From Vermamoeba vermiformis (Eukaryota): 64,000 bases of DNA. Numbering within the stretch: the stretch's first letter is position 1; every line of letters starts with the position of its first letter. The notes under the pieces are model-generated. The model was not told the DNA's origin and did not search any database. It was given only the letters and a program-made list of their open reading frames with translations. Below are positions 13,835 through 55,858 of the stretch, piece after piece. The position numbers were made by a program, and so were the translations under genes. The DNA lies in contig JBEWZL010000163.1 in the NCBI GenBank assembly GCA_045837725.1, positions 62,001 through 126,000 of the forward strand, given 5' to 3'.

Positions 13835-16800
13835 ATGAATCGTGTAAATATATTTATTTTTGTAGCATTATTTTCGCTTGTATTTCTAGATGCGTGCTTG
13901 GGAGCAGCCATCCCGAAAGGAAACATCTCTCCAACGAGCATCACCGCAACTCCTAACCAACAATTCACCTTCGCCGTATCATTCGACAACGTCGGTGACG
14001 CAATCGCTTACGGTCCCTTCCTGGATGTTCTTTTCCCGTACGATCCGTCAGTCTCTCCGTTTACAGGAGTGAACGTAAATTCAGCAACTAGCTATCTAGG
14101 CATTAGTATTCAACCTGTTATTATGACTTTCACGGCTCTAACGCCTTGCTTCTACCACCCATACCTTTTGAATACTACAGGTAATTGACGGCAACACCAA
14201 AAAATAAAAGCTAATACATTGCTAATGGCATAATTTAGGTGGCGAAGATACGGTTTGTGGTACCCCGGGCACGAAGCTTTACTCATACAGATTACCCTTC
14301 TTGTCGTACGCATCTTCGCAGCCCACCATTGATCTTTCTCTATCGGCGTCAATTTCTCAAAACTGTAAGTCGTAAGGCGCTAATATAAGCGAATCATTTA
14401 TTTATCACTTCAATCGCTAAATGACTGCGGCAATCGCTAATGTACATTTTCCTCATTTAGCCGCCACTATTTCGGTGCGAGGAGGTTTCACTTACGTTAC
14501 TCCGGACAAGCCCGTAACGCAAGCATCGCTGATTAGCGCATGGAAGAACGCTACAGTATCGGCTTCGGTAGCGAAACCAACACTGACGTTTTCGTCATCG
14601 ACTTTCGGAACCGATCCTTCAACAATTTACAGCTGTTTCTTCAATTTGAACTTCGCAACGGGCACTCTTGTTGTGAATGGCACCGCTGTTATATGTAAGG
14701 AGTTATTTACAATTTTGGAAAAAATCACGGAAGTAACGATCCGCTCTTTCTAGGGTTGCCTTGCGGTGTGCACTTTATTGGATTTGATGCTGCTAGCACG
14801 GGAAAAAATGTAAGAATATTCTAGTGCCATTGCTTCACTTTCTGACATCTTTTAGCTTGCTTACAATAACGGCGCTTTCCAACCAGAAACCGGATTCAAG
14901 GATCAAGTGACCGTTGATTTGAATGACAACCCTAATACTACCGTGCAATTGAACAACGTCTACGTGGCGTTTCAATTTTACTTCTCTTACGATGAAGTAG
15001 TGCAATGCTATGGTGGCGGCGTTGGAGGTAGACCAATAGTCATTCCTTGGAGCGTGGGCATTCCTTATTATATTTACGATCCTACATGCAATTGCATTAA
15101 GGTAAGATAAGAAATAGTTATCTGGGAACAACAAATTTGTTATTTCCAAATTTGGAAAAATCATGCATTTACCCTTCTTTTGCAGTACTACAACCCTGGC
15201 ACTTCTGTTACGACCTCTGTGTCTCGGTTTACGATCGATCGAACTATGGTGGATCCAGCGACCCCCAGCAGTAAGTTTGGTTGGGTAAAATTCTAGCTTA
15301 ATTAATTCGTGCACAACAGCAATCAAACCTGGAGACACTTTGCAGAACAGAGCCAACGTTAGCTTTTATTTGGCAGAGTCACACACTTGCATTGACTCCC
15401 TAACGTGGGCTGAAAATGGCTTGGTTGATGTTCCAGTCAGTGGTAGCGCATCCGTTAAAGTAGATGCAACCACTTTGACCTTCACCCCTGCCACGAATGG
15501 AAATGGCGATTTTACCTATGATATCAGTAACGGATTGGGGCAAAGTCCGTTGACTCCGCCCTATTTTTTCGAGGCTCGGTATCAAACAACAATTGAGGCA
15601 AACGCAGATCGAACTCACGGATCGACCGTCAGCGCTGTAACTGAGTAAGCAATCTATAAGTGGTATCAAAAGTTACTAACGAGGGTAGTTTCTACTTTAA
15701 CGAAGTCAATTGCACGACTGGAGAGGTTGTTAAGCCCATCCACTTGACCGCTTCAAATTCCTTGCGCATCACTTCTGGAACATTAACGATGACGCAGTAC
15801 GCCAAGGATGGAGCTTGTAAGTAACGTCTCAACCAGAACTCCTTTTCTAACGTAGCCAGTGTGCAACCCCTGCTCCACGACTATCAGCCCAACGACTTTG
15901 GTAACCGTGTCCGTCAAGTACACGTTGCCAATCTCAACCTTCAAGAATTTGAAGTTGGATATCTACATGCCTTATCCACCTCTGCCAGTCTCCACAATGA
16001 CTTTCGAGTACGTAACAGTACTTAATCCGAACGGCCTTATTAACAAGTTAAAACAGCGATGTTATCGATGCTAATCCGCCTGCTTTGTATCACTGCAAGT
16101 TTGGTTCGGGAGAGACTTTGAGATCTACGTATGGAGTCGTCCCTACTGTGTCCTCGGATGCATCGAACAACCGCGTAACCCTAACTTACCCTGACTACTA
16201 CGACTCATCGTCCGCAAGCACCACGACTCAAATTCTTTGCACGTTCCAAACCGCGGACACAGACTTCCCTGATGAGCTTCCTGTTGCCGCTCAAATGGCT
16301 AGCTTCGAGCAGAATGTTGGCACATCCACTACTTACACTACTTACGTTTTGTCGCGGCCTGGTAAGCTTGTTGAGATTTATTTTGCAACAAAGTACTGAT
16401 AATAGTACAGTAATCGGAAGTGCCAACATATATAAGGGCTTTATCGCCTCCAATAACCCCCTTGCTTCGATGACGACAGGCTCGATCTCTTTTCGAGCCC
16501 CCGGTACATCGGGTAATAGATGGAACGCAGCTACCACACCTATTACTTCGACGTACTTCTCGAGCAATCAAGCTAGCTTGACATCAAGCGTCTCGCAAGT
16601 TGACGCCAATGATCTGGTCACGGTCATCATAGTCATTAACAATCAAGGCTCTTCACCTGCTTATGACGTAAAAGTGTCCGACGTTGTTCCCTCTGGCCTC
16701 GTTCAACCCAGCGGAGGCTACAACATGCGCGTCACAAATGGTGCTGGCACAGCGCTCACAACTAGCGGAAATTTGTTTTCTGGTGGCTTGACCATCACTC

Positions 16801-19800
16801 GTGGTACCAGTCCACCAATGCAAAGCAAGGCTAGCACAACAGGAGATAATATCATTGTCATCACCTACGACCTGCAGATTAACTCAATCTCCCCTGGCTA
16901 CACAATTACCGTCGACTCTGTAACACTCCTTGGCTACGCGGCTTATGTGGGTGGAACACAATACGCTAGTAACATCAAGTCTGGCACGATCACGATCGAT
17001 GGTGCCGTTCCATCCATTCAAACGCCCGTCCTAGTGTCAAGCGTAAGATCAACAACTTTTTAGTTCTAAGCTGATACTGATCTCATTTTTAGTCACTCAC
17101 GGAGACTGGCTCCAGCAGATACTCAAGCTCATATACTGACTTTGCACTGGGGGAGTCGTTCATATTGTCCGTGACAATGAAATTCCCCGAGGGAACTACG
17201 AAGTCTACTTACTTTGAGTTCGCTTTTCCTACAGTTGCCACGGGTGTTATTCAGTACGCTAACTCGACCATTAGCTACGGTGGTAACGTCTCTCCTGCTA
17301 CATCGACCGTATCAAGCGACAGTTCTACTGTTAGAATTACCTTTGGTGATGTGACCAACGTTGCCGGTATGTGTAACAAGTAGCGCTTTGAATGTGGATA
17401 CTAATTTTGTAATAGATGACACTGTTTCTGCCGACGACGAAATCACAATCCTCATTGCAGGCATTGTTGCTGGCACTGGCAATGCTCAATCGAGCACTGT
17501 TCGCACTAGCACTGGATTGTTGCAATATGGCATTCAGAACTCCGCTGTCCAAAATCTGACCACTACTTTTGGCTGCGAGCTTGTTGAACCTGCCCTGACC
17601 ATCTCACGCACGTGGTCCATGACCAGTTCATCCAATGCCGATGACACCATTACGATGACGATTGTTGTGCAGCACAACTCTGGAACAACTAACTCTGCTG
17701 CCTTCAAGTTGAACATCACTGACGCACTCGGATCTTACCTTGTCAGTAACTCCGATGCCACGGCTACGATGGGCACCATTGTGCAGCAAGATCCCTTACA
17801 AGTTTCAATCCCCATCTTCACCATCGGCAGCACTACGACCATCACTTACACTGCCAAGTTAGTGTCCAACTTGGAGCTCAATCAACAAGTTGTCAGCACT
17901 GCCTCGCTTGCCTACTACAGTGTTCCTGAAGCCTCTTTGGCGAAGAGTTACAGCGCGTCTTCCGCGACCACGCAGAACTCGGCAAAGGCAAGCATTGCGA
18001 CTGTCTTAATCGGCACTAGTCTTGCAGAGACCACCAAGAGCAAATATTCCACTTCGATCGATGACTTGGCAATTGGCGAAACGGCGACCATTCAAAGTAC
18101 TGTTACACTTCCCGAAGGCAAAATCTCGAGCGCTGTTCTTACGTTCAAAACGCCACAAGTGACTGACGGCGTCATGGAAATCGTCTCTGCTCGTATCTAC
18201 TCAGTTGGTACCAGTATTTCTGGCTCTCCTACGCCAGCCGTCAATGAAGCAGCAACAATCACGCAAGGAACTGCATCCGTTCCTGCCACTGCCACTTGGA
18301 ATTTGGGCAATTTGGTCAATACTCCCGATAACGTTGCTGATGCAAACGACAAAATCGTCATCGAAGTCGTTGTAAAGCCGACCGTTGGCAAAGCTCTCCA
18401 AAGCAGCACTGCTCGCTCGTTAACAGCAGCCCTCGCTTCTTCATTGACAACTACTACGGTCACCGCCATTCAGTTTGAAATTGTTGAACCAGTGAAGACT
18501 CTTGCTAGAACTACTACAATGACAACTTCGAGCGATGGTCACGATCTTATCAACATCACGCTTACAGTCGGTTCTGGCTCTTCTGACAACGCAGCCGCCT
18601 ATCAAACCGTTGTTACGGACGATGCAAGCTCTTCGATGACACTAGTCGTGGGTTCTGTCACAGTGACAGGCACTGCTTCGTACACCGTTCAATCAGGCAA
18701 TACTGCTGGTGATACATCACTTTCAGTGCTCATTCCTAAGATTCTTTCTGGTGCATCGAATATCGTGATCACTTACCAAGCACGAATTGTCGACAACATT
18801 CAAGCAGCCACTTCTGTCGTTGGTACTGGCTCGATGATCTACTATTCCGACACTGACACAAGTGCAACAAACGCCAAGTCGTACACACAAACAGCTTCCA
18901 ACACTGTCGTGTCCAAGACTCCTGCCATTTCAATTGTCGTCGCTAGCACGTCGCTCTCCGAGACGGGTGCAGATCCTGGCAATTCTGCCATACAGACTTT
19001 GGCTATCGGTGAAACTATTGCCTACACGATCACTTTGACGCTACAAGAAGGTTCATTGAGCAGCACTCAAGTCACTTTCACCGCTACTCAAGTCGCTACC
19101 GGAACTCTCGAAGTCCTTGCTGCCAACGTTTCCTTCGTTGGTTCTTCCATCACCGGAAACCCTCCAACTGTTGGACAGACTGCCACTGTCTCTACTGGTG
19201 GCTTGGGAACGAGCTCTATCGCCAAATTCATCTTGGGCAACGTATACAACGACCCTGATGACACGCAGAATGCTCAAGACACGATCCAGTTCACTGTTGT
19301 TTGTCGTCCGTACCTCGGTTTGGCAAGTCAGACTGGAAATGCCCTCACGAACACAGCTGCCCTCGCCTATGGTAGCTCTGGTTCTGCTTCAGCCTCGAGC
19401 CAAGTGAAGATCTACGACGCTGTTCCTCTTCTTATTTCCAGGACCTCGAACATCGCAACGAGTGTTGATGGAGGAGATGTCATTTCAGTCACGCTGACTA
19501 TTCAGCCCGATACTACTTCAGGAAATCTTGGTCCTGCGTATTCAGCTGTAGTCAACGACTTGTTGGCTCCTGATATGAGCGTGGTCATCGCCTCAGCTGT
19601 CTCTAACAAGACTAGCGCCGTGATTACTACCGGTCCCACATCAAAGGATTTGCAAGCTTCTATCCCTGTCATCCAAAAGACCGATCCTGCTGTCCGCATT
19701 ACTTACAACGTTACGGTGAACTCGCAAATCGAGGCAAGCTCGGTCTCTATGCAAGCAAAAGTGCAGTCCTACACGAGCCCTGATATTATAAACTCGAAGA

Positions 19801-22800
19801 CCTACACTGTTCAGACATCTGCTGTCTCTGCAACAGTGCCAGCAATCGCAACCACCCTGGCATTGGTATCAACCTCCTTGGCTGAAAGTGGCGCAGACTC
19901 CAGCAATGCTTTGATTGAGAACTTGTTCCTTGGAGAAGTTGCCCTCTTGCACCTGACAGTTCAATTCCCCGAGGGTAACACATCGAACGCCGCCCTCAAT
20001 TTCACGGTTCCGCAATCAGCGAAGAACGTCATGGAAATCGTCTCCTCGAAGGTGACAGCCATTGGAGCCAACTTATTCTCCAGCGTTCCCATCGCTGTGA
20101 ACCAAGCTGGCACTGATACTGTTGGCGCTCTTGGAGTTGTGTCATTCACTCAATTCAACTTTGGCACTATCTACAACGCCCCTGATAACACCGTATCAAG
20201 TGCGGACAAGATTACTATCGAATTCCGTGTTAGATTTGCCAGTGGCCAAAGCAATGAGCCCACTGGTACTGCAGTGTCGGTTTCAATGTTCACTGCTTCA
20301 CTTCGTGCCACGACTCCGAATAGCTACCAGTTTAAGCTCGTAGATACCACTCAGTTGTCGCTCATCAAAGCGATTCCCTTGGCAAACATTATCGATGCAG
20401 GCGACATAATCACAGCAAATATCACCGTTACACCGGCCAGCTCAGCAGCAACTGCAGCTTACAACATCGTGGTTACGGATGAACTTGGTCCTTACGTCAC
20501 TGTCCTCACGAACACCATAACCAAGTCAGACGCCAATGCCGTCGTGACAGTCAGCGGTACATCCGTAGTTATTCAACTTGGTGTGCTATCTGGTACCAAC
20601 AGTTTGATCGTCACGTATCAAGTCCAAGCAATTGCACAGCTTGAAGTGCTGACAACGATGACTTCCGAGGCCAACATGACGTATTACTCCAACTCGGATA
20701 TTCAGAATGCCAAGGTCTATCAAGTGACGAGCCCCAGCTTTTCTTCAACCAGTTCTCGCGGCTCTGTTAGCAGCTCTATCACAGCAACATCGCACAATGA
20801 AACAACCAAGGCCCAGTACGACACCAACGTTGAAGATATGATTCTTGGAGAAACTGCCACAGTGACATATGTAGTCACTTTCGCTGAGGGTAGAACAACC
20901 GGAAGTTCATTATCCGTTGTTTCTTCTGAAGCTGCTGGCCGTGTCGTAGAAATTGTCTCCATGTCAGTTCTCAGCGTGGGCTCAAAGCTTTCATCTTCCG
21001 TGTAAGTCTGTATTACGATATAATTACATTTCATTTTTTCTAACATTATTTTTGTAGCAATCTCCTGACAACCACTGCGGCTTTGTCTGAAGGAACAGTG
21101 GCGGGAGTCAACACTCGTGCTTCAATGAACTTGGGCGATATTCTCAACACAGCTGACAACACTAACAACGCTAACGATCAAATGCGTGTTACTGTTGTAC
21201 TCCGATTCTGGCATTCAGCCTCTACCACGCAGACTGGCACTGACGCCTTGACCACGATCACATTCAGTGCCGATGCTTACATCGACAACACTACTACAGC
21301 TTTGGAGTTGCTTCTCACCAAGCCATTGATGTTCACCAAAACAGCAATTGGTGTGCAAGACGGACTTGACGAAGGGGATAAGATCAACGTTACGATTGTC
21401 ATTTCTCGTGACAGTAACAGTGCTAACCTTGGACCTGCTTACAAGATCTCAATCACCGATGACTTGTCTTCTCAATTAGTGGTAGTTCCTGGCAGCTTCG
21501 TAACGTCCAACGCCAACGTGGTCAAGACTGAGACTTCCTCAACCACCAACACAGTCAGGTTTGATCTTCCAGTATTGCTCATCACGGACAGTGACGTTGT
21601 GATCACTTACTTCGTCACTCCTATTGTTGGCATTCGCCCCAACACTTACGTGTCTAGCACGGCATCGTACTACTATCAAGCTAGCAACATCAACGACGCA
21701 ACCTCGCCCTCATGGAGCTCTCAATCCTCAACTTACGAGTTCACTTCTGCACTAATTTCGGCTCGTACTACAACTAGCGCGTTAGTTACTGGAGCTGCTA
21801 CGTACAGAGATCCCGAGTACATCACGCTGTCGGTTGGTCAAGTAGGTGTCATCAAAGCAATTTTTGGAATGCCCGAGGGAAATACTACGACTGTTGTGCT
21901 CACTGTTGAGAGTCCGACTGGTCCGGACACTTTGATGGAGATCACCAGTGCCAAGGTTTATTCAAGCGGTTCGAAGCTTAGCTCCGATGTTACGTAAGTG
22001 CAATTTTATGGAATCAACCAGGACTAACAGATTTTAAGTATTACGAACGTTGTTCCTGCAATAACGAACACTTCAATGCCGTATGAATCTAAGGCTGTCT
22101 TTACCTTGAGCTACATTTACAACCAAGCCGACAACATCAAGAACACTAACGACGAATGGGTCGTTGAGCTGAACGTCATATTCCCACTGGAGATTACGTC
22201 CAGCAACATTCAACCTTGCATCACAACCTTCAGTCTGACTTCGGACACTTACAACGTCTCCACTCAAGCTGCATTCCTTCCTGCACCAACATCTGATTTG
22301 TTGTTGGCTCGCTCAAGTTCAATGAAAGACAACATGGATGCTGGTGACTTATTCTCAGCTACATTGACAGTGTTTACCGCGAGTGCTAACGGTAGTGACA
22401 CCTTCAACGTCAATGTCAGGGATGTCCTCTCTGGCTTGGATTACGAGGCGCTATCTGCTCAATTCAGTGAAGAAACAGCTTTCTTGATTGCTGACCCTGC
22501 CGACTTCGTCTCAGAGTTGCCATTCCGCGAGTTCAACAGCTCCGACTACGTGATTCAATACAAGCTTCGAGTCGGTTCTGAAATAGAAGCAAATGCTCAA
22601 ATTTCGGCATTCGCAGAGTTGCACTATCAATCTGGCAACATTGGAGCCTTGGCTAAGAATGTCTCGCTTTCCACGAGAGTATTCACAGCAACTACGGCAA
22701 GTCCTACATACGACTTCCAAGTCTCAACTATGCTCCCCGAGACCACTGAGGTTGCAGGAGTACACCAAGTCACTTTTGGTGAAACAGCTACAGCCACTTT

Positions 22801-25800
22801 TACGATCACATTCACGGAAGGTCGTACTTCAGGCAGCCAGATTTCAGTCTTCGCTAGCCAAATTACTAGTGCTGTGGTCGAGATCCTGTCTCTAACGGTC
22901 ACTCACGTTGGTTCCAAGATCTCGTCCTCAGAGTAAGTACATCGGGATAAATAGGCCTCTTTTGCTAATTATTCGCTTAGGTACCTTTCTACGGTTAAAG
23001 CGGTATTGATCAAGAGCACTAATGGTGTGAATGCCAATGCTACTCTATACCTCGGAGACATTCTGAACACTTACGACAACGTGGTTGATGACAAGGACCG
23101 AGTTACCGTTGAAGCCGTGTTCAGATTTGTGCCCGATGTGAATGAAACTATTGGAGTGACCGCCACGAACTCGATTCAGTTTGACTCACAGACTATCCAC
23201 CATGAAGAGCAATTCTCTATGGTTCTCGTTGATTCTCACTTGACCATCACTGAAGACACGTCAGCTCAAAACGTAGCAGCAGGAGACATCATTTACTTCA
23301 CGATCATCGTGTCTCCTATCGCAGGCAGTACCGGTCCCCTCTACGACATCCAAATTTCCGAAGATTTGCCTGAGCAGCTCAACTTGGCGAGCGCTTCCGA
23401 CTCAGTGGCCACGAATCAAGGCAATGTCGTATCTAGCTTGCGAACTGACAAGTTCACTGTTGTCGTTCCTATCTGGACCCCAGCTGACGGTGATATTGTG
23501 GTCTATGCTGCATGCACTGTCTCGAAGCCTTCAGTCACCGGTAGCAACTTCAATAGCAACGGTGCCACGTTGAGCTACAGGACAGCCCCTTCAGCCAAAA
23601 CTGATAGCTACATTGAACGCGCCGATCAAGCCAGTGCCCTCAACTTCTACACGGCTCCCAGCACTTTCGTGCTTAAAGAGGCAGATCCAAACAGCCGTCA
23701 AGTTGGCTCCATCTTCCTTTTAGAGATTGGTCAGGTGTTCTTGATGCAAGCCGAAATCGTTTTTGCTCGTGGTGTATCTAGCAACACGACACTCGCTTTG
23801 GCCTTGCCTAATGACTTGGCGGGTGCTCTTCAGCCCATTGAAAGCATGATCAACTTCACCGGTGTTGCCGTTGACCAGATCGACTTCAACTACGAGCTCA
23901 GTGACTCCAACAACGATGGCATCAAAGATCTATTCACTGTCCATTTGGGCGATGTGCTGATCGTTGGTAACAACGAGACTCAACCTGTTGACAGCTTGGT
24001 AGTCATCACGTTCGTCACCATCACGAACCGCGTCTCTCGAGACACTGGTGACGTGCTCGCAGCTACTTTGGGCATTACTTTCTCTGGCTCAGCTCCCTCC
24101 ACTGATTCGCTCTCCCTGCAAATCGTTGAGCCAGTGGCCACTAGCAGCACTGTAATCACACAAATCAGCCAACTCTTCGAGATTGACGACACGTTCACTA
24201 CTGTTGTGACCTTGCAACACGAGCTGACGTCTCATTCTCCTTTGTATGAGATCGTCATTCAACTCGCTGGCAATACATCCGCTTATCACATTCTCAATGG
24301 CACAGTAACCACGTCCATCGGTAGGTCATGACTCAATTGTATTATGCTTGCTAACTATGTTATTAGATTCTATCGTCACCGTTGATGCCGACACCCAAAC
24401 AATCTACATTATGAAATATGATGTGGAATCAAACGCAGACTTGGTAGTTACATTCGACTGCGTCTTTGTCGAAGCTACCGTTGGTTCACCAATGGAAACT
24501 GGTGTAATTGTCACGGGCAAGAGTTCTGCACCTCACAGCGATTACTCTGAATTCGACGAGGCAATTGTCTACACCATCGAAGAGAGCTACAGATCACTTG
24601 ACATCAAGCGCCCTGACGTCACGATCTTCGTCTTTGATCCTAAGACTGGTGAACGTCTTGAGAAGCTTGAACTGCCCGTGTCAGGTGAAGGCTACGTTAA
24701 GGCTCTCATCCACGTGCCCAAGAGCTTGGTTCCTACGCTCTCAATTTACTTCGAGTTGGATGAAAAGTTGGCTTTGAAGGACGGCGAACTGGTCACTATT
24801 CAAAGCAACACCACGCTGTACATTGGTGGTTCTGCAACGACACCTCTTGAGCAAATACTCGAGGCCGGTCTTAACGTGGAAAACAACGGCACCAAATTCA
24901 GCATTGCTTTCAACGGCTCAATTGACGTCCCTGAACATCAAGCCTACATTGAAGTCTCGTTCCCTGTCGTGAGACTTAACACCAACAGCAGCGGTAATTC
25001 TTCCACTTCAGCTTGGTAAGTAGATTTATTGACATGATGGAGCACCTAGCTGACGACTATTAGGATTGAATTCCCCGGAACTAACAACACTACGAACAAC
25101 GGGACTCGCACTATTATTCCAGGCGACGTTATCAAGTCGATCGAGCCTGAGTTGACGGTGATTGTCACTAAAGTCGATCCAGTTGAAATTGAAAAGTCTG
25201 GCGAGAACGCAACGATCAACTTGCTCATTTTGCACACTACTAGAAGCACGTACACTGCCTTCTTGGTGAACTTCAAGTTGACATTGCCCGACATTTACGA
25301 CTTTGTTCCTGACACTGTATTTGCTCGTGTTGATAACGAAACGCTTGATAGTAAGTGAATTTATTCGCTATGTTGCTCTTACTAACAAATTTTATTCAGT
25401 CTACGTGAATGGAAGTGATTTGATCGTCAAACGCGACCATTTGAACTTGAACGAGCGCATTGCCATCGAGTTCGTCGCGATTGGCTACAACCCCGAGTTC
25501 TCTTCAACGAGTTCATTGAGCAACATCTACTGCTCGTACACCACGACAGCTGACACGACCACGCAGTTCTCGGTCTACAACCAGTTGTCCGTCTACAGAA
25601 AGATCGAGATTGGTATGCATAGTTTATCCCCCCTTGACGCAGCAACACTTTATCTAACGCTTTCAATAGCCCCTGATGTTGCTGTCTTGGGTCCCTTGTC
25701 GTACTTCCCCACTGACGATATTGCGCTGTCCCCGGTCGAATCAGTCGGAGCCTCGTACAACTTGCCACTGCTGTCAACCTCAAACGACAACTCCTCGTTC

Positions 25801-27887
25801 ATCGCATTGAGCTTCGATTTGAGTCACATCAAGTCTTACTTCGCTCGCATTCACCGTACGTCAATATGTCTTCGAGTAACATCAACTCACCAATCAATTT
25901 TAGAACTTGCGCTCGTGCTGCCTGTTGCAGCCACTGAGGGTCAATTCTCTGACAGCCAGTTGCACATTCATGTGTCGTCGATTGGCGGCTATGTTTGGGA
26001 TGAAAACACAGCTACCTATGTGCGTAGAGCGGATAAACAACAGATTTTAAGTGCGTGACTAACAAATATTAGGCGTCTATGCTCTCCGTTAGCCCTCACG
26101 AGAACAGCGACAGACTGCAAGTCGGCGAGATTTCGCTTCCTGACGCGACCAACTACGTTCAGATCGATCTCGATCGTGCGTTGATTGTGCTGAACGAGAA
26201 TCAAACCAAGGTCAACTTGCTCATCCACGCCTCTGAAGGTGCTGATGCTGCGAGGCTCACCATCTTCTCCAAAGAGTCTAAGGCTAACAAAGCAGCTCGC
26301 TTGATCATTGAGTTCGAGCGTCCTCCTGAATTGACGTGCCAACAGTTCCCCGTCAGAAATTCCGAGTTTGGCGCTGTCACGTGGTTGACAGGCGACTTGT
26401 GCTTGCCTGCCTGTCACGCCACATCTGCTGGCTTAATCTGTGATCCTACAGTCTCTTTTACGCCAGCCAACGATCACAAGAACTTGATGCCCTTGTTCTC
26501 TTCGGAGAGCAGCATTGAAGGCGGTGCTTTGCGCTTCGTCCTCAAACTGCCCCTTAGCGTCTTGCCCTTGGACGACTCTGTAAGCTTCAAGTTCAAGCTT
26601 GGCAACGAAGAGCGTGCCTCTGCCGTGTACGCTTATCCTGGTGTCTTGTGGACTACACGCGTTGTAAATGCCACTGAGACTGACCTTGGTGAAACGCAAT
26701 GGATCCTCGAAGTGCCTTGGAAGCTGGCACTCACTGCTGGCTGGTCCGAACTGGTCGACAAGAAGTACAACCGACACGTGTGGAGCACCAATCTGACTAT
26801 CTTGATTGACGACGAATATGTCTGGCGCTATCCCGTGGAAGTGCAAGTGCCTGAAGTGCCGCAACTGGGCACGGTCTTCTCCACCAACTCTGCTAGCAAT
26901 CGTGTGTTCAACAGCACTAGTTCGAACTCAACGACTGGCATCAGTCTTGACACTCCCTACATTGACTTTGTGCAATTGAAGCTGGTCGTGCCAATCATCA
27001 GCGTCAATACCAATTCGAGCCTGTTGGAGATCATGAACTCGACTATTAGCGCTGAATGGTCGCTGGTCGATGACACCGATTACAGCTCTTGCGCCAACAC
27101 GACAACTTGCACTCAGACCTTCAATTTGTTGATCCCATTAGAACAAGAGCTGCCTTCGATCAATCACACTGTTGTTGTCATTGACTTTGAGGCCTCGTCA
27201 TGCCCTTCATGCAACAAGCGTCTCATCCCGTTCTCGATTGACTTCAACTTTGGTGCCAGCAACATCCGTTCGGTGGTTACATTGCACTGGGACTATGAAG
27301 GCAATGGCGAGGTGTTGAACACAAATCTCGAACCTGAATCAGTGTTCACTATCTTCGAAAAGATCCTGGTCCACGTGCACGTCGATCAACTGCCCCTCAA
27401 TCGCAGCACGTTCGTGCAAGGTGTGCTCGATCAAACAGCATACGACAACTTGGCGCTAGTCATTGACAACACCGAGTACGTCCTCATTGAGCACGGTCAA
27501 GTCACAGCCACAGGCCAAGAACTGCAACTCCAACTCGTGTCACAGAGCGAGGCAGACGTTACCGTGTCACTCTCCTTCGCTAACTCCAATCTCATCGTCA
27601 ACAACGAGACACAAGCCACGATTGTCACGGGCGTATTCACCGATCAGCTGCATCAGCTCAACTTCACGCAGCGCACTTCATGGCCCGTGTACACAGCGCA
27701 CAACGTCACGCTGATCATTCCACCTAGTCCCGATGATGGAGTCGTCGCACCAGTTGGCACGGGCATCGACGTCATTCTGCCTGCTGTCATCATTCCTGGT
27801 GTGTTTTTGTTGCTTCTGCTTGCTTTCCTGATTTGGTTCGTTTTGATCGCTGCGGGTCAATGCAACCACTACTGCTTGCAATATTAA
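13835..27887 (+). CDS. Giant (about 4,000+ aa) type I surface protein/adhesin with bacterial-type DUF11/fimbrial-D2-like Ig repeats, a DNRLRE/CBM96-like domain and a C-terminal TM; about 20 introns
   Basis: Signal peptide MNRVNIFIFVALFSLVFLDACLG and contiguous S/T/V-rich exons joined by short GT-AG introns. Motifs GE....TVTLPEG and D(A)GD.I..T..V...AAY..VTD.L recur. TM VILPAVIIPGVFLLLLLAFLIWFVLIAAG. The exact 3' end is uncertain because an extra short exon is possible. Confidence 0.85.
16570..25350 (+). repeat. About nine degenerate two-domain protein repeats, period about 930 nt (about 310 aa)
   Basis: The A-domain signature (LAIGETA/LFLGEVA/MILGETA/VTFGETA..PEG) recurs near 17150, 18070, 19000, 19925, 20840, 21830, 22770, 23720 and 24680. 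Confidence 0.8.
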
Positions 27888-28610: not shown

Positions 28611-29884
28611 ATGAATTCTGTTAGCTCCGGCAAGCAATCTATTAGGAGGGAAACTCACGGTACGTATTATCTTTGCTATTATATCAAGTGGTGAAGAGGC
28701 TGATGTCAGTTGTTGGCAGATCTTGCTGATGAGGTTCCATTGCCGGCTCAGGGAGCCAGTTCGGACGCACTATTCAATTTTAAACAAGACCTCTTCATTA
28801 AGTGCAAGGAGAGATGCCCCAAAACAATTGCTCAAGTTGACTGGACTCTTGTCGAAAAGTACAAAGACGACATCTACAAAATTTGGTCCGCGCAATGCTT
28901 GAAAGAAGACTGCGGTCGCTTGATTAAGCTTTGCTTTACGATTGTGCCGAGTGAAAAGATAGGGTAAGCAACTTGCATATTGCCACGGTTAGAGACACAT
29001 TTTCTAACTTACTTCATAGGGACACTATCATTCTGACAATAAGAGAATACAACACGATTTTATTTATCATGGCTTGTATCCGAGTACAAAGCACGCACGG
29101 AAGACCAATGAAGAGGGCCACGCAACATCAGATCGAGCTGTCAAAGGAAAAGAAGAACCGAAGAAAGACGCGACTGATTGCGCAAGACATCGAAGAGCGC
29201 ATGGAGCACGAGTTGTTGGTGAACATTGGCAAGTACTGCAACGTCGACAAAGTAACTGCGAATGGAGAAGATTACGTGGAGATTAGCGACAAGCAGGGCC
29301 AACCCTACAGGCCCTTGTTTGAGGACCCCAACGAGTTCCTTGCGTTCATTGAGAAAAAGACACCCGAGAACAAACGCCAGGTTCAAAAACGTCCTCGAGA
29401 TCTCACGGACATTGACGCAGCAGGGACTCCAGAGTCAGAGAAGGATTCGGAGCAAGTTGCGCGCAAGTCACTCCGTGCAACAATCGACACGAGCACTCGA
29501 CAGGGCATGCTGCTTGCTCCTCCAGCCCCGTCTCAGTCACGATCTATTGCTCCTCCAACTCTGCCTCAATCACAACTTGCTACTCCTCCGCAGGCCACAC
29601 AAGCGATACCAGAGCCCGGTGAAGATGAGTTCGAATTTCCTGCGCTAGAACTGCTGACAGATGACGAGCTCCAGTACTTCACTAGTCACATGCAGGAGTT
29701 GAATGACAGCGTAGAGGACGGTGGCGCTGGATACCAACCCAACACAGGCCAATTGTACGACTTGGCATTGTTGCCGATCGAGCCTGATTTTCCTGATTAT
29801 GGAGCTGTTGACGATGGTGTTCAGGTGCCTACCTATGTCAACACTGAAGCACCCTTACATCAACAGTCAGTTGGTGCACAGTAA
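28611..29884 (+). CDS. Hypothetical protein with a basic segment and an acidic/Pro-rich C-terminus (possible nuclear regulator)
   Basis: ATG 28611 and short introns join ORFs 28710-28967 and 28973-29884. It has the basic patch KEKKNRRKTR and the acidic stretch EDEFEFPALELLTDDEL. Confidence 0.6.
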
Positions 29885-30007: not shown

Positions 30008-33000
30008 TCATGTATTCTCCCGTTTATCTCGTTCTTCTTGCTCTTCAATTATTCTGTTCTTTTTGTTGCGACATTTCTCCAGCTTTAGTTCCAAGATCAA
30101 AGCCTTTTCCTTGATCTGGTTGTATTTCTGTCTTTTCTTCACCAGCTCTTCTTTTTCTTTGTCTGTTTCGTAGTCGAAGGAAGTACTTCCGCTCCAAGAT
30201 CGTTTTCGTTTTTCGTTCCATCTGCGACGGCCGAGCACTGGCGAGCTGGATGTATCGAGTCTCAGCAGTTCTGGCGTCTTGTCACTCATACTTCGTAGTC
30301 TCTTGCTAACTTTCTTCAATTTGCCTTCAAGCGCTCGGATTTTCCTTCGCATCTGCTTTTGCTTTGGTTTAAGTTGCGGATGTCGCTTGTAAACTTCGTC
30401 AACGGCGTCTAAACTAGCTCCCAATCGCTTTAATATTTCGATTGGATCTGCCAAGTCGCCGGCATACTTTTCAATATGCTCGTACATGACATGGCTGTTT
30501 TTCAGAATGAATGCACCACCGAGCTGCCTGAAGATCCGGATTAATTAGCTTGTTATTCAATTATCAATCCTGTAGATTCTTACAATATATCGCCTTGAAT
30601 AGGTCCTTGAGCATAACCTAATGAACGAGCTTCAGCGTTCAAAGCTTGAGTCTTGGCATTCAACACGCCTTTGATCCAGCCTCGCTGACATCGGAAATCG
30701 TCGTATAAATGCCTTGCTTCATCGACATATATCTCACCATCTATTTAAGAAAGCCGTTAGTATTAACCCAACAAATTCGAATTCAGAAACGGATCAAGAT
30801 CGCATGGCACAAACGCTTTGATATTGCGATCTTAGCGCTTCATTTTGCATAAATTGAGATCGTGGCCACTACCTACCGAATTTAAACTCGTCTTTAAATG
30901 CTTTGGCTTGAGCCCACGTACCGGTGCCGACTGCGACGAGTTTAACGCCTCTAACAGAAGAGATTAACACTCTATTCTATTCAAGTTATACTAGGGATAC
31001 TTACAGTCTATCTAGTTGTGTCTTAATCATCATTAACTCAGCTGCACTCTTGCGACAGATGATGCTGAAAAAACAGACTGAGTCAGATCGGTATTGTTTT
31101 GGCTAAAATAATGATAGAAATACTAGTATATGGAGGACTTACCATCCAAAGTGTCTTAAGAATACAAAAAGCACCGTTTGATTTGCGATGACCGAATCGA
31201 ATTCCACGATGGATCCGCTTGTCGTACCAATCTCTCGCTTTAAGACCCACGGTGGCAGTTCATATAGTCCTTCACTAATGAGACTATTAGGTACCTCCGC
31301 GTCTACCAGCAGCTCATCACTAATGTCTTCATCTTCGTCGTCCAGCACTTCATTGCTACCGCTGGATGTAAGCAGATCTTAAACGATGTCAGAGAGGCGG
31401 TAGGGTAATTGGATCCTTGGTATACGTACCTGAATTACTGCCTAAGTTCATGACGACTTTGCCCATCTCATAGAGCTCTTGTTCGCTCAGGATGGTACAT
31501 CCGCGTTGAAAGTTCAAAAAGTAGCGTTGAATATGAGGAATCTGCTCGAATTCGTAGGCCACGCTTTGATAGCCGGATACTTTCCATAAAATCTTGCCTA
31601 TATGCGAGATTTTATGCCAGTTAACGAGCTGACCATCTTCAAAGGTTTCAAGTTCTTCTAGATGCATCAGATCTCGCAAGATCAGCGCTAAAAACGTAAA
31701 TTAGTAATATTGCGCATCGAAACATATATTTCTTACCTATATACGGAATGCACGGAGCTGAAGCTGCTTCCAAAGCCTCTCGGTAGTATTTGAAGTTCAA
31801 GCGATGATCCATGAGTTTCTTAATCTCTTCGAGACTGCTAATGACCTCAATAGGCAGCGAGGGTAAGGATTTGTCGATTAGCTTCTGAATAGCAACGTTG
31901 TTCAAGGCCGAATAGAAGATCATGACGCCGTTGAAGTTATTTAAGCAGTATAGCTCGCGCATTATCATAATAAACTTGGCTATGCGCTGATCACGTTCCT
32001 CTGAGGTACTCATAACGATTTGAGTGCAGATCCAGCGTGAGCTCTAGCGTAAATTCAATTTAGTAAAGGCGGAGGAATTCTATTAAATTAATATAAACTA
32101 GGTTACGTACGTCGTTAAAGAATCCTACGAACTTTCCTAACGGCGTTTCGTTAGCGTCGGTCTCTTTCTCAAATTTCTTCTTTACGAGCACATCCAGGGG
32201 TATCGCCTGAAATTTCGAGAAGCAAACGAGAGTAAATTGCTCGGCTATATCACGTGCAGTGTCCTCGATGATGTCAAACTTGATTGAGCGAAGACTGCTA
32301 TACGAATTTAAGCTTCTTCTGCGGGATCTTATCGGGGAAGCTTCTTCTTTGCCAACGGTAGACTCGATCCGTCTGCGCAAGACCGAGCTCAAGTCTTTAT
32401 CGATTTCATTGCCCGCGGCTAATGTCTCCGCGAATTGCCGCACGAGAGCCAAGCATTCTGAGTCGAATTTACTTTTGGGCTTCAAATTTAAGATCTTGCT
32501 GAGCGTGTTGACAACCCTAGTTCAAAACTTTAGCTCGATGCTCGATGAGATTTAGGGCAAGAGATAAATTTAGCAACGGAAGTTTGCCTTAATTATAAAA
32601 CTTAAAAATCCGGATTTGAATTTTCAGCTCGTTTAGGCGTTTTAGGTAATTTACTGCTTTTGCAGCTTTGACGCACCTCAACTTTGTCGAATACTGTTCG
32701 CTTTCATCTGCATCGGTCGGCAACTCCGAGTAAAACTCAATTGTTCTCCGGATTAGATCCGAAGGTGTTACTAAGTAGTCAGATGCAAGCAGAAAGTAGT
32801 TCGCAAACATCGGATCTGTTAATAACATGTTATTATAGGACCTAATGAACACATTCATACCTTTTCTATTGTTATGCACGAGTTCGCTAAATAAATCTGA
32901 CAAGGTGGCAGTGTCGAGAGACTTCAATTTATTTCGTTCTTGAGGCTGCGATGCATATACTTGTGTAGCACCATGCCCCTTATCTTCACTCTACGAATAA

Positions 33001-33264
33001 TTAATAATTATTATTACTATCGAGTTTTCTTACGAAGTCTTCGCTGAGGATCTGCTTGACTTTTTTGCTCGAGAAAAGAGTGCCGAAGGAGTGTCGCTTT
33101 GATCGTTCGAACGTTGGTGATAAATTGTTGCTATTCGAACTGTCGGACAGCGTCCCGCTCTTATCAACAGCTTGATTTATTTCTTTATCTTCTTCGATCG
33201 GATGCAGTCCCGATCTGCTGTTCGACAGTTGTAATGTCGAAGGAGTTGGCTCTGTTGTGCTCAT
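30008..33264 (-). CDS. RasGEF (REM + CDC25) fused to a peroxiredoxin-like PRXL2/AhpC-TSA_2 domain and a C-terminal coiled coil
   Basis: CDC25 motifs DIAEQFTL, LNNFNGVMIFYSALN, NFKYYREAL..PCIPYI and LRDL. Intron 31378-31429 joins in frame to LFVFLRHFGC|IICRKSAAEL..GVKLVAVGTG..QGDILQLGGAFI..EHIEKYAGDLAD. Confidence 0.85.
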
Positions 33265-40500: not shown

Positions 40501-41914
40501 TACGTAGTCGTATTTATTCAAGTGCATTAATACTAACTATATCATATGAAGTCAACGACGCACGTTCCCATTCACGTCGTCAGTTCCCATTTTCTGCAAT
40601 CGAATCAAGAACGCCGTGTCAGACATGAACGACTTTGGCAAGGACTTTGCTGGCCCTGAAATGAACTCTGCGATTATCAAGGTACGTTCTCGAGATCTGG
40701 ATTTAGATCAGATCGGATCTTGTCATGTCTTGCCCGGGGGTTCAATATCTAAGGCTATTATACAGGCTACTGAAGGTATGATGGCCAATCTGATGCAGTT
40801 GATGGTGCAAGAAGTGGTCGAGCGACAAAAGCAACAACAAGCCTTGGAAGCACAGCGCGCAGCTTGGTGGGCCGTGCGACTGTCCAAAGACAAGAACAAC
40901 AAGCTCTATTTTGCACCTGCCCCGCCTGAAGAAGACAAAATCACGCTTGATTTCATCGTGCAAGTGATCATCAACGTCATCAACTTCCAGCACTGCATTG
41001 TGCCGTTAGAAGAGACATTGACCAGTCTAGGCATCACCATTAGTAAGTACTCCTCACCTATACTCACGCATGAAAATATACAGCTATATGAACACCTTCA
41101 TAAGTTTGATCACGTGTCACTTTTTTGGATCTGCTCGACAACTTTTTTTTGTCAAGTACTAACGTGCTTCATAGCGGCAAATTCAGCGGCACTTACCAAC
41201 ATGAAGACGTACGAAGAGAGCATTGAGCGATTGCGACACATCTTGTGGGACGTGAATGAGAGTTGCATGAAGAAAGTGTTCGAACAGCAAGAGAGCAAGA
41301 TGAACTGGATGACGACCACGCCTGTCACTCAGCCACGCGAGTATATTTTGAGTGCGTACTAGGCACCTTTAATGCGTTAAGATGTATGCTAATGATTCCT
41401 CATGTAGACATTGAGAAGTACATTCTTGACAACTTCGCCAAGTTCAGTAACTTGCCGCAATCAATTTTCATCGAGCTGTACCGACGAACATTCAAGTTCA
41501 TTGCCGATCGATTCATGGTGCGTAGTACTATCCATGATATCAATATAAGTCCTAATCTCATATACCTCTCAGGGCTGGCTGACTCGCAACTCGGTCACGC
41601 ACTACACGCTCGAGACATTGAAAGGCCTGCAAATCGAACTCAATCACTTCTTGGCCACGGCAATGGTCTCGCCCGTGACCAATCCCACGGAGTACTTCAC
41701 AGAGCTCGTGCAGCTGTTGCATTACATCACACAGCCACATCCCAAAGTGTTCTTGGAGCGTGAAGTGCGCGCGAAAGATTACCCGCGCCTGACCGATGTA
41801 CACCTCATGGTCACCGTGCTCGAGAAGTGCAAAGACGACGCGTGGTTTGTGAGCGCACGATCAAAAGAATTCAGCGCCGTTGTGCGGTACTTGAAAGAGC
41901 ACGGAATAAATTGA
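37531..41914 (+). CDS. SEC15: Exocyst complex component Sec15/EXOC6, multi-exon
   Basis: AIKAVFEQ..EQREQEIEKICQNNYQAFIKSLDEL, EVNEWL..IR, FAPLYQCSYIYESMGIKEEFSLYYKENRKAQARL, IAGFFIIEDTVL and FPFTSSVP. Confidence 0.9.
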
Positions 41915-48596: not shown

Positions 48597-51429
48597 CTAC
48601 TTGCTCTTGTTGTATTCATCGAGCATCGCTTTCAAAGCATGCGACGGAATAACTTTGACAGATCTCATCGCCTTGTTTGTCACCGGAGACAGCTTTGATG
48701 TTTTGAACCACTCTTCAATAGCACTGCGCTCGTACGTGTGGCCGTCATTAGCTTGCACTGGATCTGTCATTAACTTCTTGGTGATGGGGCAAATTAAAGC
48801 ACTGGGCGGTTCTTTACTTGGTTCATAAACAGCGGACTGCTATCAAATGCGTCAATAATATAGTTAGTTAGTAGTGTAGTATCTTACCTCTGCCGTCGCC
48901 TTATACACCGCACCAAAGGGATTGTGTTCGCGCCGCAACACTTCAATGGCCTGTATGAGCTTCGATCGATCGCCTAGCGCTGCAATTTGCAATGTGTTGG
49001 CGAGATCGGATTTATCCAGCAGAAACAACTCGATTCCTGTAATCTGCAAAGGATTAGCTAAAGTAGTCAATACAACTTGACTTACTTCGTGATATTTAAA
49101 CACCTCTTCGTGCTCGGCAAAGTTGCTTTCATACAACCAACGACACACTTGGTCGTTATCCCAATCCAAGACTGGTGGCAAGTTGCCGTAGATATCTTTG
49201 CCGGACTTCACCATGAGAATATACACCTGCAACCTTTTCGCTTGCTGGAAAGTCATCTTGAGGTCATGCATTAGCTCGGCAGTGGTCAAATTCACCAAGA
49301 CTGCTCCGGTGATGTTATTCTCTTCGAAGGCAGGACCGCAACCCCAAACTTGTATTTCGTCCAAAAATGTGATGACGTCGTTCACTTCCCACGTTGTGAT
49401 GCTCTGTTTCATCTTCTTATTCCAGGTTTTGAATGCTTCATTGTTTGTCGACTTCAACGTCTTCGTGTTTTCCAAGTTTTTCAACGCTTCGGCATGTCTG
49501 TCGCTGAGTTTAATCGCATTGGCTTCTTTAAAAAGAAATCCTTCGGCTTTTTTCTTGAATTCTCCTTCTAACTTGGCAATTTTCTGATTCAACAAAGTTC
49601 TTTCGAGTTCCAGATTTCTCCTCATCTGTTGCATTTGTTCGATTGGTCCTAGTAGATCTCTCGTTTGATTGCACGCTTGTTGTACTTTTCCGTTTAGCTT
49701 CTTCAGGCTCTGGCCAAGCGTTTTGAAAAATGAATTGTACAAAACATTCATTTCGTGCAATCCAAATGGCTCTGGTACGATTTTGTCAACCGAGATTTCG
49801 GGATATTTCTCCAGAAAATTAAAGGCCTCGTTCCTATCCCACCAATCGTCCAGTTGGAAAACATCCAGTTTGGAATAATCTACGCCATCGTCATCAGCGC
49901 CGTTTTCGGGTTTTGGCTCCACGAACTGATTGTTATTGTTGTCGTTTGCTGTCAGGTCCTTGTCTACTACTTCGACATCGCTGACTGCCGTCGGGACGTC
50001 TACCGCAGGTTTCATCCAACTCTCGTTCAGACGATTATCCAACTCCTCCGTTGCCTCCGAAACTTCTTCATTCAACTGCTGCAGATGTCGTCTCTGTGCT
50101 AGCACATTATGAAATGAGTTGATCACTTCCTGCGACACAGGATTGCCTGGTTGCGCGGTTAGTTTAGTACTGTACATTGTTAATTTATTATTCCGTACCC
50201 GTGATGTTAATGAATCGTATATTCCGCTTGCATTTGACAACTGACATGAGTGCAATGACTCCGTCGTATCCGATATTAGTATCTACACTTAATTAGTACT
50301 GTCAATTTAAAAATGTCTGTACTTGCTCTTTAAGTTTATCCCTGCTAAAGATTCGTTCTGCAGCACGCCTGTGACTAAATGCTTTGCCCCGAAGTCCAAC
50401 AGGTTGTTTCCTATTAAATAGATTAGCAAGTTTAATCGCAACTGCAGCTACTTGCCAGATAAGCTCAACACTTTCAAGGACTTGTTCGACGCCAGTGCGC
50501 CGGAGATGAGAACGGCTGACTCGAGCTTGTTGTCTGCAACGGATTTAGATTCATTCATTCATTTACTCTGCTTAAACTTACGTCCGAGGTAGAGCTCTTC
50601 TAACGTGGTGCTCGCTGCTAACGCCTTCGCGAGGTAAGCTTCTCCTTCGTTGATATTATTTTCTGCATGGCGTTAATTAATACGTGCCCTTCGTATTTTT
50701 ATAATCTCCTACGTTGCAAGTACAGGGCCGTCAGGTTTGACGTGATGATAGGCTCGATAACCCAGTCCTCATTCAACGTTAAACCATTACCTAGCAAAAA
50801 TTAGACTTGCTGTAGCGAACTGAACTGAACGCATTTACCTCCGAGTTTTAATGTCGTCAATGTTTTGTTTACCTTCAAGAAGTTAAATACGAGCTTTGCT
50901 CCTTCGTCCCGCAGATTGTTGCCTAGCCAACCGTTAAAAACTGAAAAACGTCAGCAATAGTTAGTGCTTACCATGCAAATCGAGAGTGTAGAGATTCAAT
51001 TGATTGCGCAATCCTCTAATAATACCTGACAAGCCCTTCGCTCCCAAATATGCGCCTATTCGATCAACAGGTGTCAACTTTTGTCGTGGTTAGAGCTGGA
51101 TCGACTTACCGTTGAACGTCACTTCTTGCAGGGAGGACGTGGAAGCTATTGCCCCTTCGAGAATAGTCGCTTGCTTCAGATCAAAAACATCGCCTGCATT
51201 ACAAGCGTTAAAATAAAGACGCGTACAAAAGTTCAAATTACCGTCCAACGTGAGGCTCTGTAGCGAAGAATCGATAGTAAACCGCTTATTTTTATCGAGA
51301 TAGCGCCAACAATCGTCGATGGTAGCGCTAACTAAATTAGTAAATGGCTCCACAACCCGTCACTTGAACTTACGCAACTCGACGGATCTCTATGCTTGGC
51401 GCGGTTTTATCCTCTGTTGATTTTGAATG
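48597..51429 (-). CDS. LRR - coiled coil - SAM - SAM - U-box E3 ubiquitin ligase
   Basis: RNI-like LRR exons at about 50270-51270. SAMs TWEVNDVITFL..FEENNITGAVL and DWDNDQVCRWL..ITGIELFLL. U-box LICPITKKLMTDPVQANDGHTYERSAIEEWF..SPVTN. The start codon is tentative. Confidence 0.85.
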
Positions 51430-55368: not shown

Positions 55369-55858
55369 TGCACTACAGCGCAAGGTTAGTGCTCGAAGCC
55401 CGAGCCAATAGCATTGCTCCCGAGTTTTTGGGATCTAGAGTCGTCCAATTTTGGTATAAACACGAATATTCGCGAACAATTTTCGCTCAAGATACCACAC
55501 CACATTAGCAATAACAGGATACAGTTTCGGTCAGCGGAATCAAATGGTGTCTCAACATTTTAGAATTTGTTATTGAAATCCGAATCCTTGTTTAGGTAAG
55601 CACCCTTCTTATTTAAGAAATAGAATAATATTTAAAAATAAAAATCAAATATAATATTTTCACGATCAATACCTTTTAATAATTGCCCCCTTGCTGAGGC
55701 CATTAATTTTTCTTTTTCGCGATATTTTGCGCAACTGTCACGAACCTTCTTCGTGATAGGCAGCGTGCAATTTATATAATGAAAAGAATGTATTAATAAT
55801 ACCTCACTACAGTGTAGACGCCACATTGGGGATTTCAGACCCATCCGCCTAAAGCAAG

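Follow-up and report, generated by a model that had tools for sequence, protein, structure and literature searches.

The minus strand of the window, a 64,000-nt stretch of a Vermamoeba vermiformis contig, encodes between positions 33264 and 30008 a protein that joins a Ras-family guanine nucleotide exchange factor (GEF) domain to a thioredoxin-fold domain of the PRXL2 type. Ten GT-AG introns link 11 exons into a single frame of 838 amino acids (aa), in which a REM-like region, a Cdc25-type RasGEF, an acidic linker, the PRXL2-type domain and a basic helical tail follow one another; an open frame of this length through ten introns is far beyond chance. We refer to the locus as the RasGEF-PRXL2 gene. 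It is a real, rare, conserved and previously undescribed domain architecture, the function of which we can only infer, and we regard its gene structure and the identities of its domains, taken together, as close to certain.

Gene structure and support from relatives

An earlier, sequence-only reading of this DNA had suggested a hunt for proteins that combine RasGEF with AhpC-TSA_2, the Pfam family to which PRXL2-type domains are assigned here (PF13911). Searching longer proteins with the RasGEF core exon gave three matches among 94 candidates, two of which carry both PF00617 and PF13911. These fused orthologs, P0001 (661 aa) and P0002 (795 aa), hold RasGEF and AhpC-TSA_2 in one unbroken open reading frame (ORF); their contigs measure 2840 and 2743 nt, respectively. 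Alignment of the spliced window model with each of them runs from end to end, at 455 of 656 identical residues for P0001 (69%) and 420 of 785 for P0002 (54%). Each exon of the model is supported in the exon-by-exon comparison with these proteins, and eight of the ten junctions (3 to 10, including those of introns 6 and 7) are gap-free against both. Moreover, several short ORFs from a HMMER search (P0004, P0006, P0007, P0041 and P0061) resemble unspliced pieces of the same genes. The parts of the gene, all on the minus strand, are as follows.

33264..30008, minus strand: whole coding region, 11 exons and 10 GT-AG introns, 838 aa; ATG at 33264..33262, stop TGA at 30010..30008
33034..33264, minus strand, 231 nt: exon 1, Ser/Thr-rich N-terminus, weakly conserved (18 of 56 aligned residues identical to P0002)
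32861..32990, minus strand, 130 nt: exon 2, start of the REM-like region
32677..32815, minus strand, 139 nt: exon 3, REM-like helices (DPMFANYFLLASDYL...), 24 of 46 residues identical to P0002
32111..32516, minus strand, 406 nt: exon 4, helical linker, basic/Ser-rich loop and start of the Cdc25-type RasGEF (PF00617 positions 1-47, E=0.031 for this piece alone)
31737..32043, minus strand, 307 nt: exon 5, RasGEF core (PF00617, E=1.5e-22; 78 of 102 residues identical to P0001)
31430..31687, minus strand, 258 nt: exon 6, helical hairpin and C-terminal end of the RasGEF (aligned to RasGRF1, 2ije_S, residues 161-231 of 240)
31378..31429, minus strand, 52 nt: intron 6, with an in-frame TGA inside; its position and phase are those of a 28-codon insertion of P0061 relative to P0002
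31143..31377, minus strand, 235 nt: exon 7, 37-aa acidic linker (residues 491-527), first PRXL2 strands, Arg565 and two bases of the Cys569 codon
31065..31142, minus strand, 78 nt: intron 7, dividing the codon of the first CxxC cysteine; P0061 departs from P0002 at the same ...FLRHFG/ site
31005..31064, minus strand, 60 nt: exon 8, last base of the Cys569 codon, Cys572 (31057..31055) and start of the helix after the CxxC (18 of 20 residues identical to P0001)
30877..30950, minus strand, 74 nt: exon 9, GVKLVAVGTG strand-loop of PRXL2 (PF13911 positions 13-36, E=0.055 for this 24-aa piece; 21 of 24 residues identical to P0001)
30584..30740, minus strand, 157 nt: exon 10, middle of PRXL2 including Cys631 (30690..30688, FRCQRGW), 50 of 53 residues identical to P0001
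30011..30527, minus strand, 517 coding nt: exon 11, end of PRXL2 (QLGGAF..., YAGD) and a 125-aa Lys/Arg/Glu-rich tail (residues 714-838)

The introns (33033-32991, 32860-32816, 32676-32517, 32110-32044, 31736-31688, 31429-31378, 31142-31065, 31004-30951, 30876-30741 and 30583-30528, all on the minus strand) range from 43 to 160 nt in length, and five of the ten contain a CTRAY branch-like motif 15 to 22 nt from their 3′ end. Being short and carrying such motifs, the introns give a fungal-like impression. An alternative in-frame ATG lies 14 codons upstream of 33264, so the start codon assigned here is provisional.

Two of these introns hold the fusion together, and for both the sequence-only reading had claimed what we find. 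Intron 6 (31429..31378) was said to remove the apparent stop of the RasGEF frame: it begins with GTACGT and ends with TTTAAG, lies in phase 1 (TCA G / AT CTG), has a CTGAC branch-like motif 15 nt ahead of its 3′ end and contains the TGA at 31391..31389, at which the unspliced RasGEF frame would close 13 codons beyond the exon; the junction left by its removal is gap-free against P0001 and P0002. Intron 7 (31142..31065, GTAAGT...TTTCAG) was said to rebuild FLRHFGCIICR, and as a phase-2 GT-AG intron it interrupts the codon of the first CxxC cysteine (TG/C), so that its removal yields ...VLFVFLRHFG/CIICRKSAAEL.

Database ORFs break at the same places. P0061 is identical to P0002 over the 11 and the 69 residues that flank its 28-codon insertion, which falls exactly at the junction of RasGEF and linker, and then leaves the P0002 sequence at FLRHFG/W, the position of intron 7 in the window. 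Similarly, the P0001-like P0004 diverges from P0001 at ...FFND/, the site of window intron 4, the P0002-like P0006 diverges at the corresponding ...FFNE/ site, P0007, whose sequence is almost that of the window, likewise goes out of frame at ...FFND/, and P0041 matches exon 10 as far as its downstream (3′) boundary. These coincidences between ORF breaks and window introns indicate that at least two related organisms have kept the fusion and splice it. From them we infer that P0001 and P0002 represent transcript-like sequences with the introns removed and that intron positions and phases are common to the organisms.

The same evidence bears on whether two separate genes, or a gene and a pseudogene remnant, have been wrongly joined here through chance splice sites and chimeric assemblies. 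Such an origin could appeal to the unspliced RasGEF frame, which ends at the TGA at 31391..31389 after a complete catalytic domain, and to in-frame Met codons in the last RasGEF exon, the closest ones upstream, which could in principle start a short product. However, there is no Met between that TGA and the CxxC: the stop-to-stop frame 31378..31139, whose 79 codons cover the linker and the start of the redox domain, has none at all, so a separate downstream gene would be without an in-frame ATG ahead of the CxxC, in agreement with the earlier claim that no ATG is available for one. Furthermore, the window model, P0001 and P0002 all hold one open frame through a linker whose length differs among the three, intron position and phase are shared with relatives, and all PRXL2 exons are intact and highly conserved. 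Given the shared introns and the gap-free orthologs, a chance frame or a two-gene artefact is very unlikely, and we consider this explanation exceedingly improbable.

Retention of two introns would have distinct consequences. In the window, a transcript that retained intron 6 would stop at the in-frame TGA just past the complete RasGEF and give a RasGEF-only isoform; at this site the P0002-like organism has an intron that reads through in frame for 28 codons without a stop (P0061), so truncation by retention is not a conserved feature. Intron 2 (32860..32816, 45 nt) is crossed without interruption by the stop-to-stop frame 32589..32990, and its retention would add 15 residues to the REM-like region with the frame intact; P0002 matches the spliced form.

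The RasGEF and PRXL2 domains

The RasGEF domain spans about residues 245-483 of the protein. Exon 5 alone scores 80.8 bits against PF00617 (cut-off 23.1), and the orthologs match positions 1-180 of the 181-position profile (E=2.9e-38 for P0001 and 1.8e-36 for P0002). In the alignment with the 240-residue RasGRF1 chain, exon 6 extends over residues 161-231, so the catalytic domain is complete before intron 6. By sequence, the RasGEF part matches RasGRF1 (1.5e-23), RalGPS1, RasGRP1 and SOS1, and an AlphaFold2 (AF2) model of P0002 finds its best PDB matches in the SOS1 REM-Cdc25 unit and in RasGRP2 (target template modelling score ~0.70 over ~440 columns; 438 columns for SOS1). Pfam gave no match to its RasGEF_N family, either in the window exons at E up to 1 or in P0002 at E up to 0.01. 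With SOS1, RasGRF1, RasGRP1/2 and yeast Cdc25 the protein shares a full-profile PF00617 match (seen in the orthologs), but it has none of the usual accessory domains of such factors (DH-PH, C1, EF hand or cNMP) and carries PRXL2 and a basic helical tail instead. Its hairpin motif is PYIALILRDLMHLEE, which differs from the usual consensus, P[FY]LG.[YF]L.DL. Leu938 and Glu942 are catalytic positions of SOS1, with which the RasGEF part was compared at residue level by eye only.

The PRXL2-type domain covers about residues 528-704 and carries Arg565, the Cys569-x-x-Cys572 motif and a third conserved cysteine, Cys631. Against a Pfam cut-off of 27 bits for PF13911, P0001 scores 69.7 bits (3.6e-19) and P0002 65.8 bits (5.6e-18); the 24 aa of window exon 9 reach 14.3 bits by themselves. 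For the spliced window model we used a local hidden Markov model (HMM) built from 10 independent, non-orthologous PF13911-positive domains, which it matches with 187.3 bits over residues 543-700, whereas none of 200 shuffles exceeded 2.4 bits. Among solved structures, the human prostamide/prostaglandin F (PGF) synthase PRXL2B (FAM213B; PDB 9US9 and 9USA) comes closest, matched by chain 9us9_A with E=4.1e-18 over 171 residues. GCIICR of the window aligns with GCVVCR of this chain, placing the CxxC in register with the catalytic Cys44 and Cys47. The earlier reading had thus rightly recognised a thioredoxin-fold PRXL2 domain with an intact CxxC downstream of the RasGEF, and the three motifs it had listed as hallmarks (FLRH.GC..CR, VAVG.G and GD..QLGG.F) have their counterparts in human PRXL2B as LRRFGCVVCR, LVGVGPE and GDLLQSGG. 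A thioredoxin-like fold is indicated both by this match to a solved structure of that fold and by the P0002 model, in which residues 500-690 alternate between strands and helices, with predicted local distance difference test (pLDDT) values by 10-residue block mostly of 90-98 and one block at 66.

Conservation is highest in this part of the protein: exons 8-10 are identical to P0001 at 89 of 97 residues, compared with 78 of 102 for the RasGEF core. The first CxxC cysteine is kept in 13 of 13 sequences, the second in 13 of 14, the third in 14 of 15 and the equivalent of PRXL2B Arg40 in 14 of 14 (orthologs and fragments are included in these counts and in that for Ala given below). The CxxC letters of the window are those of P0001, and P0002 reads GCVLGR, with Gly for the second Cys, so a strict dithiol/disulfide switch is not universal. 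Cys631 (FRCQRGW, 30688..30690 on the minus strand) corresponds to Phe in human PRXL2B and could be an alternative resolving cysteine, notably in P0002. Taken together, the domain is probably functional and under selection.

The report on PRXL2B (PMC12938796) describes Cys44/Cys47 as a redox-active pair, in which reduction of the CxxC disulfide activates and stabilises the enzyme and the CxxC reduces the endoperoxide of prostaglandin H2 (PGH2), making PRXL2B a small-molecule reductase. The same source describes an active site shaped by Arg40/Arg41, the Ser166-Pro167 loop and a trans Pro167, and a flexible segment near the active site and the CxxC, which matches the Cys631 region. When these features were sought in the window family, the Arg40 equivalent was found to be kept, and neither the Arg40-Arg41 pair nor the Ser166-Pro167 loop was found. 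We therefore assign the domain to the PRXL2/AhpC-TSA_2 family and not to the PRXL2B orthologs. Both share LR.FGC..CR, the V.VG strand, GD.LQ.GG and the Arg40 equivalent; in contrast to PRXL2B, a stand-alone enzyme of ~200 aa, the window domain lies C-terminally in an 838-aa signalling protein, its family has the extra conserved cysteine of FRCQRGW, and Arg41 and Pro167 give way to His/Gln and Ala.

The conservation pattern also speaks to a possible role as a redox-inert dimerisation or scaffold module in which the cysteines are kept for stability. PRXL2B is a homodimer whose interface includes the CxxC-bearing helix, according to PMC12938796, and P0002 has lost the second cysteine, both of which suit a scaffold. 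Nevertheless, the first cysteine and the upstream arginine are invariant, the second and third cysteines nearly so, and no other part of the protein is as well conserved, to a degree beyond what a plain scaffold would need; we consider an inert module very unlikely.

The linker between the two domains is disordered in the predicted structure. The AF2 model of P0002, built from a 50-sequence alignment, has a mean pLDDT of 80 and a predicted template modelling score (pTM) of 0.56, with values mostly above 90 in both domains and below 50 in the segment that matches the acidic linker. The tail (125 aa, with 23 Lys, 17 Arg and 15 Glu) is kept in P0001, P0002 and P0005 and forms two long helices in the P0002 model; in the window exons and in P0001/P0002 it has no Pfam match above cut-off. 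Its weak matches to mTERF (21.5 bits), Nuf2 and others, and in P0002 to Snapin_Pallidin (19 bits), fall below the cut-offs and were judged to reflect coiled-coil or charge bias.

Rarity and RapGAP-fused cousins

Proteins that combine the two domains are scarce. A HMMER search of 1.84 billion cluster representatives returned 8118 matches at E up to 0.001. Among 153 proteins (the 150 matches listed and P0001-P0003), the local RasGEF HMM recognised 139 and the local PRXL2 HMM 16, and only P0001 and P0002 were recognised by both. Those two were not themselves returned as representatives, so full-length fusions can escape this library, and that no others appeared counts only weakly towards rarity. 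When the PRXL2 region served as the query of a word-based search, P0001 and P0002 were the only proteins recovered from 1023 candidates of similar length. In the ESM Atlas, the whole of P0002 retrieved RasGEF clusters only, at a score of 0.77, under the lead level of 0.9, and its residues 500-695 retrieved stand-alone bacterial AhpC-TSA_2 or SelL-related clusters at 0.94-0.95; no fused cluster of at least 50 members was found there. Searches of the literature outside subscription journals found no RasGEF or RapGAP fused to an AhpC, PRXL2 or thioredoxin-like domain.

The closest kin of the domain turned up a second kind of fusion, to GTPase-activating proteins (GAPs) of the Rap type. Among the matches listed, the 10 nearest non-orthologous PRXL2 domains all pass the PF13911 cut-off, and three of them lie in Rap_GAP proteins: P0033 (PH, PRXL2, Rap-GAP dimerisation domain and Rap_GAP; a complete ORF from a EukProt transcriptome assembly), P0082 (PH, PRXL2 and Rap_GAP) and P0051 (PRXL2, Rap_GAP and protein kinase). 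The other seven proteins, six of which have unexplained extensions and were re-scanned to E up to 1, have no further Pfam domain, and some of them may be partial. A word-based search for the P0033-type PRXL2 region found P0033 alone among 806 candidates. The PRXL2 domains of P0033, P0082 and P0051 are of the same subfamily as that of the window (38-39% identical, sharing FGCxxCR, C.RG and YAGD) and likewise have a Ras-family regulator as partner; they differ in that this partner is a GAP, that PRXL2 stands N-terminal to the catalytic domain and that they belong to a different subclade.

An unrooted tree of 14 domains places the RasGEF-fused domains in one clade (support 99/99) and the RapGAP-fused ones across a branch with support 91/93. 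Because RasGEF- and RapGAP-fused domains are split in this tree, regulators of Ras-family GTPases appear to have acquired a domain of this PRXL2 subfamily on at least two occasions, which suggests separate recruitment, once to an activator (RasGEF) and once to inactivators (RapGAP). A further proposition is that this subfamily, recognisable by R[HQ]FGCxxCR, C.RG and YAGD, serves specifically to feed thiol-redox signals into regulators of Ras-family GTPases and was independently recruited to RasGEF and RapGAPs; on present grounds it is somewhat unlikely. If it were true, the turning on and the turning off of Ras/Rap signalling in these organisms would each be wired directly to peroxide or thiol state by a single polypeptide.

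Fusion to RapGAP as well as to RasGEF fits a regulatory module, and it fits equally well a domain whose target is the GTPase itself or a small molecule. The first of these two alternatives holds that PRXL2 oxidises or reduces a redox-sensitive cysteine of Ras or Rap while the catalytic domain holds the GTPase. What the RasGEF and RapGAP fusions have in common is indeed the class of GTPase substrate and not the catalytic domain, and Ras-family GTPases are reported to be regulated via cysteines such as Cys118 (PMC6695279). We consider this proposal distinctly unlikely.

Candidate functions and the surrounding window

Most work on redox control of Ras has dealt with oxidation of the GTPase itself or with diffusible relays that connect separate proteins. 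Links to MAPK/ERK signalling exist for PRXL2A or PRXL2C. As a whole, the best explanation of the RasGEF-PRXL2 gene, with a chance we put a little short of even, is a fusion protein whose redox-responsive PRXL2 module sets the output of the attached GEF. PRXL2 would here be an active thiol-redox unit. Cys569 would be the reactive thiol, oxidised by peroxide or by an upstream oxidant; a disulfide from Cys569 to Cys572 (to Cys631 in proteins that have no Cys572) would shift the conformation or dimerisation of the module; this change would alter the activity, partners or placement of the GEF; and reduction by a thioredoxin-type system would reset the module. The basic tail may supply membrane or partner binding that the GEF otherwise lacks. 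The more specific form of the proposal, that the PRXL2 domain gates exchange activity itself, as the sequence-only reading had also put forward, is plausible, and we hold it with greater doubt.

A precedent for the general idea is the reported activation of Yap1 and Pap1 by peroxiredoxins (PMC5371717), in which a thiol peroxidase-like protein hands its oxidation state to a signalling protein. Those relays, however, run between separate proteins and use true peroxiredoxins or enzymes like glutathione peroxidase (GPx), whereas here the domain is of the PRXL2 type, is fused to its putative target and would have a GTPase switch as its predicted output. By this analogy, the RasGEF-PRXL2 combination would at most work like a peroxiredoxin-type relay within a single chain.

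Several findings weigh against a redox-responsive module that sets GEF output. The interdomain linker is predicted to be disordered, and the pTM of the P0002 model is only 0.56. P0002 is without the second cysteine, so that a CxxC disulfide switch is not kept in every fused protein. The position of PRXL2B Arg41 is His in the window protein (His or Gln in relatives) and that of Pro167 is Ala in 16 of 16 aligned sequences; with both residues replaced, the chemistry may differ from that of PRXL2B. PRXL2B is itself a small-molecule reductase, which makes a catalytic role as natural as a sensory one. Finally, the spliced window protein has its support exon by exon or via orthologs.

The catalytic role leads to the second of the two alternatives named above, a bifunctional protein in which PRXL2 is a small-molecule reductase, acting on lipid endoperoxides or hydroperoxides, that is tethered to the RasGEF for co-localisation or co-expression and does not gate it. 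The closest solved relative being an enzyme, the prostamide/PGF synthase, agrees with this, as do the invariant catalytic cysteine and the arginine four residues upstream of it, and a long, acidic linker predicted to be disordered is what beads on a string would be expected to have. Yet the same subfamily is repeatedly fused to signalling domains (RasGEF, RapGAP, PH and kinase), which would be unusual for a metabolic enzyme, and Arg41 and Pro167 of PRXL2B are replaced. We consider a tethered reductase unlikely, and we tentatively retain the redox-responsive module as the better account.

A CxxC thioredoxin-fold module joined covalently to a Ras-family GEF, with sister domains joined to RapGAPs, offers a compact and mutable system for studying thiol control of GEF and GAP output and, if the redox-responsive reading is true, would bring the poorly understood PRXL2 family into signalling. 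Should the domain be no more than a tethered enzyme or a scaffold, the fusion is a rare but ordinary domain shuffle.

The ORFs neighbouring the RasGEF-PRXL2 gene contain few Pfam domains, and the whole window has no tRNA genes and no Rfam families. Downstream, at 28955..29884 on the plus strand, a 309-codon ORF with a Pro/Gln-rich C-terminus and no Pfam match runs convergently with the gene, the two stops being 123 nt apart; upstream, about 400 nt are free of long ORFs. Further away, a run of long frames shares the plus strand at 16185..27887 (292, 1216, 317, 302, 458, 236, 258 and 604 codons). Pfam found nothing at E up to 1e-5 in the seven of these eight frames that were scanned. The 1216-codon frame opens with 400 Thr/Ser/Ala-rich residues of repetitive appearance, and the run may code for a single giant, repetitive protein that is secreted or placed at the surface. 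On the other side of the gene, a frame at 40550..41359 (plus strand) matches Sec15_C weakly, below the cut-off (26.9 vs 28.3 bits), one at 48867..50282 (minus strand) encodes a SAM domain (E about 2e-12), and one at 55853..58309 (plus strand) encodes leucine-rich repeats (E about 2e-11).

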